From a virus (lineage: Duplodnaviria > Heunggongvirae > Uroviricota > Caudoviricetes), in the IMG/VR virus record IMGVR_UViG_2695420859_000010: a DNA stretch of 18,376 nt. The stretch is one strand, 5' to 3'. Positions within the stretch are counted from its first letter, which is position 1; each line of letters starts with the position of its first letter. Position numbers and translations under genes: made by a program. The notes beneath the pieces are model-generated. The model saw only the letters and a program-made list of their open reading frames with translations. It was not told the origin of the DNA and ran no database searches. Positions 14 to 1,993 of the stretch are shown here, in pieces.

Positions 14-547
14 ATGAACACCAAAATCAAATACGGCCTGTCGGCTGCCGTTCTGGCGCTGATTGCCGCTGGTGCGTCTGCGCCTGACATTCTCGACCAG
101 TTTCTGGATGAAAAGGAAGGCAATCACACCACGGCATACCGTGATGGTGCAGGTATCTGGACCATCTGCCGTGGTGCCATCATGGTGGATGGCAAACCTG
201 TCGTTCCGGGCATGAAGTTGTCGAAGGAAAAATGCGACCAGGTTAACGCCATTGAGCGTGATAAAGCGCTGGCGTGGGTGGAGAAAAACATCAGAGTGCC
301 GCTGACCGAACCCCAGAAAGCGGGGATCGCGTCATTCTGTCCGTACAACATTGGTCCCGGTAAGTGTTTCCCGTCGACGTTTTACAGACGAATTAATGCA
401 GGTGATCGCAGGGGAGCATGCGAAGCGATTCGCTGGTGGATTAAGGACGGTGGCAGAGACTGCCGTATTCGCTCAAATAACTGTTACGGTCAGGTATTCC
501 GTCGTGACCAGGAGAGCGCGCTGGCGTGCTGGGGAATCGACAGATAA
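14..547 (+). CDS. R: Endolysin, GH24 (T4/lambda-type) lysozyme with hydrophobic N-terminal signal-anchor (SAR-like)
   Basis: 177-aa ORF. N-terminal hydrophobic stretch (YGLSAAVLALIAAGASAP) followed by the Glu-Asp-Thr catalytic region typical of phage lysozymes (EGNHTTAYRDGAGIWTICRG). Sits immediately upstream of Rz/Rz1. Confidence 0.9.
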   Translation: MNTKIKYGLSAAVLALIAAGASAPDILDQFLDEKEGNHTTAYRDGAGIWTICRGAIMVDGKPVVPGMKLSKEKCDQVNAIERDKALAWVEKNIRVPLTEPQKAGIASFCPYNIGPGKCFPSTFYRRINAGDRRGACEAIRWWIKDGGRDCRIRSNNCYGQVFRRDQESALACWGIDR

Positions 548-636
548 GCAGAATATTTTGCTGAAAAATGAGGTTGGCCAACGCGGGCGGATAACACGAA
601 GTCCTGTGAACTGGCAAAACCTAAGTGAATAAAAGT

Positions 637-678
637 AAAAACCCCGTTTGTTGGCACCAAGCGGGGTTTTGTGTTTCT
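637..678 (+). terminator. Rho-independent terminator-like hairpin downstream of the endolysin gene
   Basis: AAAACCCCGTTTG ... CAAGCGGGGTTTT inverted repeat (about 12 bp, one G-U) followed by a T-rich run; the A-tract upstream makes it potentially bidirectional. Confidence 0.5.
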
Positions 679-703
679 GACCTTGAGTAAGGCAAGGGAG
701 AAC

Positions 704-886
704 ATGGCGAAGTATAAACGAATTCTGTTGAGGTTGACTATGAAAAATGGCCTTGAACTGAAAGCGCCTGTAACTGATGACATCAGCAGAGCACTGGCTT
801 TTGCCATTAAGTGGGTGGCGGTCGGTGTTGCTGTGTCCCCGATGCTGTATGGGCTGGCAAAACTGGTCATTGCGTTGAAATCGTGA
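704..886 (+). CDS. Hypothetical small protein (60 aa) with C-terminal hydrophobic helix
   Basis: ATG at 704 preceded by AAGGGAG with a 5-nt spacer. The track ORF starting at 671 would begin inside the terminator stem, so the internal ATG is preferred. C-terminal segment [27 protein letters not shown] is hydrophobic. Confidence 0.45.
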
Positions 887-900
887 AGGGAGGATTAAGC

Positions 901-1032
901 ATGTCAGACAAACTCATAACGCTGGCGAAGATCCTCTGTGTAATTGTCGGCATTTCATTTTCACTAATGCTGGTTGCTCTTTTTCTTTCCATGGCCTGGA
1001 TGATGTTGTCTTCGTCGGGGTTGCTGGGGTGA
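901..1032 (+). CDS. Hypothetical small membrane protein (43 aa)
   Basis: ATG at 901 preceded by GAAGGGAGG. Protein [43 protein letters not shown] is essentially a single transmembrane helix. Its end overlaps the Rz start. Confidence 0.4.
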
Positions 1033-1502
1033 ACATAAACCGAATGCTTTCCGCGTTTATCGTTATTCTGCTGGTGGCCTGTGGTGCGCTGTGGATGGCA
1101 ACAGACCATTACCGTGATAACGCGATTACCTACAAAGCGCAGCGCGATAACAAAGCCAGTGAACTGAAGCTGGCGAACGCAACCATTACTGATATGCAGG
1201 TGCGCCAGCGCGATGTTGCTGCGCTCGATGCAAAATACTCGAGGGAATTAGCCGATGCGAGAGCTGAAAATGAAACTCTTCGCGCTGACGTTGCCGCTGG
1301 TCGTAAGCGCCTGCGGATCAACGCCACCTGTCCAGGCTCCGTGCGTGAAGCCCCCACCACCTCCGGCGTGGATAATGCAACCGGCCCCCGACTGGCAGAC
1401 ACCGCTGAACGGGATTATTTCACCCTCAGAGAGCGGCTGATGACGATGCACAAGCAACTGGAAGGGGCACAGGAATATATCCGTACTCAGTGCCTGAAAT
1501 AA
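1029..1502 (+). CDS. Rz: Rz i-spanin (inner-membrane spanin subunit)
   Basis: 157-aa ORF with N-terminal TM segment then a coiled-coil periplasmic domain; the [14 protein letters not shown] and [15 protein letters not shown] motifs match lambda Rz. GTG start at 1029; an ATG at 1044 is an alternative. Confidence 0.85.
1255..1440 (+). CDS. Rz1: Rz1 o-spanin, outer-membrane lipoprotein embedded in Rz in the +1 frame
   Basis: Signal peptide with lipobox (LPLVVSAC), then a proline-rich mature region ([26 protein letters not shown]) very close to lambda Rz1. Lies wholly inside Rz in another frame. Confidence 0.8.
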
Positions 1503-1852: not shown

Positions 1853-1993
1853 ATGGATTTTATGCTGACGGTTTCTGGTGTGGTTATCCTGTCCATTGCT
1901 TATACTGCAGATAAATATGGCTGCCATTTGTTATCACGTATTGGCGCTTATTGTTCGTTGATGCTGATTTTCTCGTCGCTTTTTTTTGAGTAA
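1853..1993 (+). CDS. Hypothetical 46-aa hydrophobic peptide in AT-rich moron
   Basis: ATG at 1853 with GGGGAAG a few nt upstream. Translation MDFMLTVSGVVILSIAYTADKYGCHLLSRIGAYCSLMLIFSSLFFE has two hydrophobic segments. Lies in a segment far more AT-rich than its flanks. No recognised homologue. Confidence 0.25.
   Translation: MDFMLTVSGVVILSIAYTADKYGCHLLSRIGAYCSLMLIFSSLFFE

Follow-up and report, generated by a model that had tools for sequence, protein, structure and literature searches.

Phage P2 carries, between its endolysin gene K and its spanin genes lysB and lysC, a non-essential antiholin gene, lysA, that is described as delaying lysis (PMC3091744). Phage Mu encodes, near its signal-anchor-release (SAR) endolysin, the releasin gp25, a small membrane-anchored protein (99 aa; N-terminus outside, C-terminus inside; cytoplasmic domain anionic) that controls release of the endolysin (PMC9239132). 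Phage HK97 encodes gp15, a small inner-membrane superinfection-exclusion protein that is expressed from the prophage and has its own promoter and terminator (PMC3594210); in the definition of Juhala and Hendrix, a moron is extra DNA separating two genes that adjoin each other in related phages, with a base composition unlike that of its flanks and with its own promoter and terminator, enabling expression from a repressed prophage (PMC3594210). Here we analyze an 18,376-nt Caudoviricetes sequence, IMG/VR virus record IMGVR_UViG_2695420859_000010 ("the window", meaning the whole stretch), the first 1.5 kb of which holds the distal portion of the lysis cassette of a lambdoid Escherichia coli prophage. 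Endolysin gene R and spanin gene Rz are separated in this cassette by a 488-bp insert comprising a terminator-like hairpin and two small open reading frames (ORFs), ORF-A and ORF-B, in that order (Table 1; window coordinates throughout unless a locus is named).

Our comparisons show that both ORFs are genuine genes, predicted to encode single-pass membrane peptides, and that they are additions to the cassette. We tentatively favor a role for them as late accessory peptides that tune lysis.

ORF-A and ORF-B encode predicted single-pass membrane peptides

ORF-A comprises a basic N-terminal head (10 K+R vs 3 D+E) and a single C-terminal transmembrane (TM) helix; an AlphaFold2 model has helices at residues 2–14 and 23–59, and the hydrophobic maximum is at residues 38–56. 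An internal Shine-Dalgarno (SD) sequence and ATG at position 740 would yield a 48-aa form. ORF-B is essentially one TM helix (AlphaFold2 helix at residues 2–38, mean pLDDT 88), and its residues D3, K4, G17, F20, and W33 are invariant across 16 diverged sequences. Two candidate origins or functions for ORF-B were rejected: a duplicated Rz TM segment (BLASTP gave no alignment) and a phage MS2 L-like "LS" motif (not conserved; variants have FFSTAW).

The pattern of substitution is that of protein-coding genes. Specifically, comparison of E. coli ORF-A with its relatives in Salmonella and at tail-fiber sites yields a ratio of nonsynonymous to synonymous polymorphism (pN/pS) of 0.13–0.20 in frame and >1 in the other frames (C-terminal 40 codons), with synonymous change near saturation, and the pooled pN/pS of ORF-B is 0.48 in frame vs 0.86 and 1.11 off frame. 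Neither ORF is disrupted in any of the 65 loci having the two together in the arrangement described here (A+B loci). Full-length ORF-A is present in 14 phage records, and ORF-B is full length in 276 of 276 records of Shiga-toxin (Stx)-type phages, phage 933W included, in most of which it is unannotated. The possibility that a non-coding spacer here contains two chance or decaying reading frames is effectively excluded: although they are very short, have no known domains, and are often unannotated in GenBank phage records, they show frame-specific purifying selection, invariable intactness, conserved SD sequences, and retention across Escherichia and Salmonella. A first, sequence-only reading of the window had described a hairpin and two SD-bearing ORFs for small membrane proteins; all three lie where it had placed them, and the selection, the intactness in 65 of 65 loci, and the predicted single-pass helices bear out its identification of the ORFs as genes.

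ORF-A matches PHROG family phrog_1115 (2.6e-42, residues 1–60) and ORF-B matches phrog_4906 (2.1e-23, residues 1–43), both labeled "unknown function"; searches of Pfam, NCBIfam, and PADLOC gave no match to either ORF. A profile search with an ORF-A alignment returned 22 representatives at E <1e-3 among 1.84 billion proteins, all belonging to one small family, and no bridge to a known family among those 1.84 billion representatives. The ORF-A family has the core MKNGxExDAP...AxAFAI(K/R) followed by the TM helix, and its homologues are confined to Escherichia and Salmonella. A 126-aa minus-strand ORF at 490–870, spanning the end of R, the leader, and most of ORF-A, was rejected as a shadow frame of ORF-A; it is interrupted in GER2.

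The R-Rz junction holds three separable modules

An Escherichia ruysiae prophage with the same R family (locus L168) provides an empty-site comparator, in which the R stop codon overlaps the Rz GTG start codon (caGTGAgc) with nothing between. Across 39 unique Rz loci (one genome per species), the endolysin-Rz gap is ≤35 nt in 34, and the GC content of the insert is 47.0%, compared with 54.3% for R and 54.9% for Rz. Because L168 lacks the extra DNA, 34 of 39 loci have short gaps, and the insert has the lower GC content, we interpret the extra DNA as an addition; relative to an ancestor-like state in which R overlaps Rz, the comparison shows ORF-A and ORF-B to be additions. The sequence-only reading had proposed a lysis cassette interrupted by about 480 bp inserted between endolysin and spanins. 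The separation is as proposed (R ends at 547 and Rz/Rz1 occupy 1029–1502) and the added DNA is real, but it is not one insert: DNA searches split it into three separable modules.

In particular, segment 548–702 matches by itself Stx2c, Stx1a, and TL-2011c phages and Salmonella phage SPN3UB, and 933W and most Stx2a phages have an ORF-B of ~80% DNA identity, which lies, usually unannotated, between antirepressor gene ant and Rz. ORF-A is included in 67 of the 103 loci that have R, ORF-B, and Rz, 65 of these having the ~496-bp A+B layout; the remaining 36 have a ~1,000-bp ant+B layout, with ant in the place of ORF-A. Variation within the insert peaks in the R 3′ flank (548–636; 28% variable columns). 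Of 5,426 complete E. coli genomes, 990 carry the insert in full, as do plaque-forming phages PhiR12_1-5 and PhiR5_2. Disruption of both ORFs in functional relatives would have spoken against the sequence-only reading; these phages keep both intact. Among related prophages, compared as that reading had proposed, the insertion is present in some (the 65 A+B loci) and absent from others (L168).

ORF-B was seen only directly 5′ of Rz (276 phage records, 103 loci), at a spacing of 12–17 nt or in overlap. Relatives of ORF-A are more widely placed. In a Salmonella prophage with a different lysozyme, an ORF-A homologue alone separates the lysozyme gene from Rz. The GER2 relative (~50% identity) ends in IRWW, with its stop codon just 5′ of the Rz start; the one in phiSTEC1575-Stx2k (~50% identity) is preceded by an M15-peptidase endolysin gene and adjoins a gene for a small lipoprotein. 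Elsewhere, in further Salmonella prophages and on metagenome contigs, members of the family lie downstream of tail-fiber genes, sometimes as tandem paralogues, and one such relative (L129) has a downstream terminator.

Stx-type cassettes contain a third family of small TM peptides. A single peptide of ~45 aa (…SKLIRE…IGQIRWW) is encoded directly 5′ of Rz in TL-2011c, Stx2c phages, some Stx1a phages, and SPN3UB, with its stop codon 1–2 nt before the Rz ATG (TGAnATG or TAACATG). This IRWW family is present in 53 phage records and also occurs inside baseplate/tail modules, in Salmonella phage SEN34 and a Pseudomonas phage. The C-terminal IRWW, common to two families, is encoded by CGCTGGTGGTGA, at the position expected for the Rz ribosome-binding site. 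As judged from these records (276 and 53), a small TM ORF abutting Rz is common in Stx-type cassettes, and its identity is variable; most other Enterobacterales cassettes have no such ORF.

We favor an interpretation in which the R-Rz junction is an accessory-gene slot filled by recombination, its contents in the window being the R 3′ flank with the hairpin, ORF-A, and ORF-B. The distributions indicate different histories for the two ORFs, with ORF-A as a mobile unit and ORF-B accompanying Rz almost always in Stx-type phages.

Several further arrangements were observed at this and related junctions. Plaque-former PhiR5_1 (L137 1117–2255) has in the R-Rz slot a KilAC antirepressor gene and four consecutive small TM ORFs, including ORF-B and, after it, an N-terminally truncated ORF-A; some database proteins (P0090, P0093) read as ORF-B::ORF-A fusions, probably the product of a frameshift in a PhiR5_1-type arrangement. 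In phiSTEC1575-Stx2k, the gene that starts 1 base after the stop codon of the ORF-A homologue (TGAcATG) encodes a 60-aa predicted lipoprotein with lipobox LLVGC (L138 2155–2337), and the cassette, with its M15 endolysin, has no recognizable Rz; the lipoprotein may be an unrecognized spanin component. About 20 assemblies from unrelated taxa (Pseudomonas, Kitasatospora, Brevibacillus, Bacteroidetes metagenome-assembled genomes, and others; L142–L165) contain the same Rz, with 71% identity to the query. In L142, the sole one in which the upstream gene was read, that gene encodes a non-SAR endolysin beginning MVEINNQRKAF.... We take these loci to be DNA of phage lambda that most likely entered the assemblies as a contaminant, in the laboratory or during sequencing.

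A conserved terminator-type hairpin precedes ORF-A

The hairpin has a T-rich tail reaching ~678 and is the sole terminator-like site that a terminator scan finds near the insert. Its folding energy is −18.9 kcal/mol on the plus strand and −15.6 kcal/mol on the minus strand, and T-tracts follow it on both strands, the better one on the minus strand. Salmonella phages keep the hairpin with compensatory changes at 3 stem pairs; in ~15 related loci, G664A weakens it to −12 kcal/mol. The covariation and the folds support a conserved terminator-type structure that would resemble an intrinsic terminator on both strands, and the strong terminator-like hairpin of the sequence-only reading stands, with a 13-bp stem. 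The hairpin is also found in phages without ORF-A and belongs to the R 3′ flank.

The layout of the leader recurs. An A-run, a GC-rich hairpin, and a T-run are located 20–60 nt 5′ of the start codon in 11 of 11 small-ORF units at 9 loci, and a stem of 5 bp with a 7-nt loop recurs at the SD sequence with different pairs (TGACT/AGTCA in TL-2011c and L141; CCTAT/ATAGG in L213). A consensus scan of positions 1–2400 found no σ70-like promoter on the plus strand, although a weak or non-σ70 site could escape such a scan; the distance from the hairpin to the ORF-A ATG, 25 nt, is too short for a promoter. Rfam gave no match to the insert at gathering thresholds, and a rimP-leader-like match on the minus strand (E = 0.21) was set aside as weak and as reflecting the terminator.

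Related leaders contain additional small ORFs. The Salmonella relatives SPN3UB (L004 2386–2502) and L125 (~2715–2812) have an extra small TM ORF (38 and 32 aa, respectively; ...GWGW...) that overlaps or directly follows the lysozyme 3′ end, upstream of the conserved hairpin. GER2 (L139 1972–1998) and L125 (2978–3004) have, after the conserved SD sequence, an 8-codon upstream ORF (MGREVLSL or MCREVYSL) the TGA of which overlaps the GTG start codon of the ORF-A homologue, and the adjoining hairpin sequesters a second SD sequence. The window is without that 26-nt segment; ORF-A begins directly at its ATG.

The ORF-B/Rz junction fits translational coupling

The ORF-B stop codon, TGA (1030–1032), overlaps the Rz GTG at 1029 as GTGA, the junction also seen between R and Rz in L168, which has no insert. 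RefSeq starts Rz at the ATG at 1044; the form starting at the GTG retains N-x-N-R before the TM segment, comparable to the MNR of other Rz proteins. These features fit translational coupling of ORF-B and Rz. In 933W-type cassettes, Rz has its own SD sequence (AAGAGAG), 17 nt past the ORF-B stop codon.

The ORF-B homologue of E. coli O157:H7 Sakai was reported in 2017 as novel gene XECs191, with a translatome RPKM (reads per kilobase per million mapped reads) of 12.6 and a ribosome coverage of 0.43 in LB; the predicted product was a single-helix protein of the inner membrane (PMC5597208). XECs191 is now ECs_1966, in Sakai prophage Sp10. The 933W homologue (MISDKLITLVKSL..., 44 aa; NC_000924.1 27435–27569, L003 2498–2632), located between ant and Rz, is absent from the reference annotation, as are its counterparts in most Stx-phage GenBank records.

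Flanking and neighboring genes

R has an N-terminus, MNTKIKYGLSAAVLALIAAGASAP, that is Gly/Ala-rich and weakly hydrophobic, with its hydropathy maximum at residues 9–27, and a catalytic triad, E-x8-D-x5-T, that can be read directly off the sequence. This combination of a weak N-terminal signal anchor and a lysozyme triad fits a SAR endolysin; the 933W R homologue has been treated as a SAR endolysin in experiments (PMC9239132). Downstream, the predicted N-terminal TM segment of Rz and the embedded Rz1 lipoprotein fit a two-component spanin.

Table 1. Features of the R-Rz region in the window
Feature	Coordinates	Strand	Details
R, lysozyme-family endolysin, putative SAR type	14..547	+	177 aa; Pfam Phage_lysozyme 9.8e-24
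R 3′ flank, conserved leader	548..636	+	Common to many phages without ORF-A
GC-rich hairpin, 13-bp stem, A-run/T-run flanks	638..670	both	Terminator scan and folds
Small hairpin CCTTG-N7-CAAGG abutting ORF-A SD	681..697	+	Consensus fold
ORF-A	704..886	+	60 aa; AAGGGAG SD; RefSeq WP_001151823.1 (hypothetical protein in an identical E. coli chromosome)
Promoter-like site TAGTCA-18-TATACT, in ORF-A codons 3–13	711..740	−	Consensus scan only; hypothetical antisense start
ORF-B	901..1032	+	43 aa; GGGAGGA SD; RefSeq WP_001280932.1 (hypothetical protein in an identical E. coli chromosome)
Rz, i-spanin	1029..1502 (GTG) or 1044..1502 (ATG)	+	Pfam Phage_lysis 6e-50
Rz1, o-spanin lipoprotein	1255..1440	+	Embedded in Rz, +1 frame; Pfam Rz1 1.8e-21

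Farther downstream, a third small hydrophobic ORF (1853–1993, plus strand, 46 aa, MDFMLTVSGVVILSIAY...; RefSeq hypothetical protein WP_000347013.1) lies in a stretch of 39% GC, at a position where 933W has bor on the opposite strand. It has no Pfam or PADLOC match and looks like another moron. A YlcI/YnfO-family gene is located on the minus strand at 2126–2371, and a plus-strand ORF at 2353–2718, 5′ of the terminase small-subunit gene, has an HNH-like Cys/His motif (CxxC...H...CxxCH) and is not annotated by RefSeq in an identical genome.

Discussion

The reading to which we give most weight, with somewhat less than an even chance of being correct, is that ORF-A and ORF-B are late accessory membrane peptides that are expressed by Q-dependent read-through and that most plausibly tune lysis. 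Because there is no promoter-like site on the plus strand, and because the spacing of 25 nt leaves no room for one, transcription would have to pass the hairpin to reach the ORFs. By established lambda biology, such read-through in a late operon would be the work of Q-antiterminated RNA polymerase. The ORFs would have no promoter of their own and would be transcribed only as the Q-modified polymerase from the late promoter passes the hairpin, and their products would appear together with holin, endolysin, and spanins. Each ORF would be translated from its own SD sequence, and ribosomes finishing ORF-B at the UGA would restart at the overlapping Rz GUG, reproducing the coupling of R to Rz in cassettes that lack the insert. 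The peptides would insert in the inner membrane and there, most likely, fine-tune pinholin triggering, SAR-endolysin release, or i-spanin function, acting as modulators of lysis timing and positional analogues of P2 LysA, not as core lysis proteins. We favor lysis tuning because ORF-B is exclusively linked to Rz, because no promoter-like site is present, because P2 lysA occupies an equivalent position, and because diverged relatives of ORF-A recur in the endolysin-spanin slot of three cassette types.

Several observations weigh against the lysis-tuning reading. The missing consensus promoter does not prove that a promoter is absent. Searches of Pfam, NCBIfam, and PHROG reveal no similarity of ORF-A or ORF-B to a holin, antiholin, releasin, or spanin family. 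ORF-A is interchangeable with ant in the R-Rz slot, and selection on ORF-B is moderate. Both the ORF-A and IRWW families also occur near tail-fiber, baseplate, and possibly packaging genes, a distribution that generic morons fit better. The weak ribosome-profiling signal in Sakai comes from uninduced cultures and fits spontaneous induction and lysogenic expression alike. Finally, SAR-like N-termini are present in 28 of 35 endolysins of related cassettes, nearly all of which have R beside Rz and no such ORF; both ORFs are therefore dispensable for cassettes of SAR endolysin and spanins in general, as this comparison shows. The idea that the peptides control release of the SAR endolysin gains nothing: neither ORF matches DUF2730, the releasin domain, at E up to 1, and the ORF-A head is cationic, in contrast to the anionic domain of the releasin.

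The main alternative, if an unlikely one, is that the ORFs are morons of the HK97 gp15 type: inner-membrane peptides that shield the infected or lysogenic cell, for example by stopping the DNA of superinfecting phages at the inner membrane, and that occupy a permissive site in the late operon. Insertion between neighboring genes of related phages and a base composition unlike that of the flanks, both moron criteria, are found here. Moreover, the ORF-A family occurs as hairpin-ORF-terminator units 3′ of Salmonella tail-fiber genes, some as tandem paralogues; the IRWW family occurs in tail/baseplate modules of SEN34 and a Pseudomonas phage, the kind of site that holds HK97 gene 15; all carriers seen are temperate phages or prophages; and a low ribosome-profiling signal is present in uninduced Sakai. 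What makes this reading less attractive is that the consensus scan of plus-strand positions 1–2400 gave the ORFs no promoter of their own, that the only hairpin is 5′ of ORF-A and ORF-B runs into Rz without a terminator, that ORF-B was never found apart from Rz, and that neither ORF has a PADLOC match or similarity to gp15/YebO, Cor, or SieA. ORF-B and the other ORFs abutting Rz could also be mainly coupling frames, which, once DNA had come between R and Rz, restored delivery of ribosomes to a weak Rz start and which encode peptides of little or no function. The GTGA junction identical to that of R and Rz in L168, the ends of three unrelated peptide families 0–17 nt from the Rz start, the location of the IRWW-encoding CGCTGGTGGTGA where an Rz ribosome-binding site would be, and the pN/pS of 0.48 for ORF-B all agree with such a function. 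Nevertheless, we regard it as improbable, with a small chance of being the main explanation: the members of all three families are single-pass TM peptides, a property not required of an ORF serving as a spacer alone, five residues of ORF-B are invariant in 16 diverged sequences, ORF-A is strongly constrained though it does not adjoin Rz in the window, and the 933W-type Rz has an SD sequence of its own.

Less probable still is a system resembling type I toxin-antitoxin modules, with ORF-A as the toxin and its ribosome-binding site covered by a cis-antisense RNA of ~75 nt running from codons 1–4 to the hairpin. A promoter-like site lies on the minus strand (740..711), the hairpin has its better T-tract on that strand, and a minus-strand product would show the classic layout of a small RNA (sRNA), namely a 5′ stem-loop, an A-rich linker, and a terminator. 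Six diverged loci have AAGTATA (reverse complement TATACTT) without change, ORF-A codons 3–14 are free of substitutions between E. coli and Salmonella while downstream synonymous divergence is ~0.5, and ORF-A (60 aa) and ORF-B (43 aa), with one TM helix each, have the size and hydrophobicity of type I toxins. Yet the minus strand folds no better than shuffled sequences (z = −0.59), the −35 elements are poor and not conserved, the −10 element is absent in the most distant relative (L213), the hairpin and the SD hairpin also precede unrelated ORFs (SPN3UB, TL-2011c), and such a unit would not typically lie in the middle of a late operon. Nor is there an Rfam match, and the papers and supplements searched report no sRNA at the insert: the supplements of Tree et al. 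2014 list nothing at the Sakai coordinates of the site, and the sequence strings of the site are not present in a supplement of EDL933 start sites. The Pas sRNAs are located between the sialate esterase and holin genes, not at the R-Rz junction.

Lysis tuning, the reading that we prefer, has bolder forms. In one, which we consider decidedly unlikely, the peptides coupled to Rz (the ORF-B, IRWW, and ORF-A families) would be an unrecognized accessory component of Stx-type pinholin/SAR-endolysin cassettes that sets lysis timing; if so, they would set burst size and the moment of Shiga-toxin release. In a still more unusual variant, the leader of A-run, hairpin, T-run, and small hairpin would encode a cis-antisense RNA that gates translation of ORF-A.

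The ORFs were already known as hypothetical proteins and as PHROG families, and the ORF-B homologue had been flagged by ribosome profiling. A text search by accession found no paper mentioning WP_001151823.1 or WP_001280932.1, and the portion of a survey of Stx-phage lysis cassettes covered here (PMC8136144) does not mention ORF-A or ORF-B. New here are the modular anatomy of the insert, the empty-site comparator, the three families of small TM peptides in the slot abutting Rz, and the conserved layout of a hairpin followed by an ORF.

Lysis timing in Stx phages governs phage yield and the exit of Shiga toxin from the cell. If the peptides tune lysis, they would provide a new handle on toxin release and an example of regulators added to a pinholin/SAR-endolysin system; if they are exclusion morons, small inner-membrane peptides would join the repertoire of prophage defense. 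In both cases, the R-Rz junction emerges as a hot spot of recombination where genes for small membrane peptides accumulate.

Comparison with known systems

ORF-A and ORF-B resemble peptides of the Hok/Sok type in being hydrophobic, about as small (<60 aa in Hok/Sok), and possessed of a single TM helix, and a cis-antisense RNA could possibly cover the ribosome-binding site here too; they differ in having no homology to these peptides and in lying inside a late operon, and the antisense RNA is hypothetical. The Mu releasin gp25 has an N-terminal TM segment, whereas the TM helix of ORF-A is C-terminal and its head cationic, and hardly any of ORF-B is soluble; Stx-type phages, according to the covered portion of the survey, already possess a pinholin (PMC8136144). 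Like HK97 gene 15, the ORFs are genes for small proteins, here predicted to lie in the inner membrane, inserted between late genes that adjoin each other in related phages, with a GC content unlike that of the flanks, and relatives of ORF-A and of the IRWW peptides occur in tail modules. Unlike HK97 gene 15, they have no promoter-like site and have a terminator upstream, and there is no sequence relationship.

The ant gene of 933W and other Stx phages occupies the same slot as ORF-A, with the R 3′ flank on its left and ORF-B on its right (36 of 103 loci), but encodes a 189-aa soluble regulator and not a 60-aa membrane peptide. P2 is not lambdoid, LysA has four predicted TM domains as opposed to one each in ORF-A and ORF-B (PMC3091744), and the two ORFs have no sequence similarity to lysis families in Pfam, PHROG, or NCBIfam. 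In P2, nevertheless, as between R and Rz in the window, a membrane-protein gene is located between the endolysin and spanin genes.

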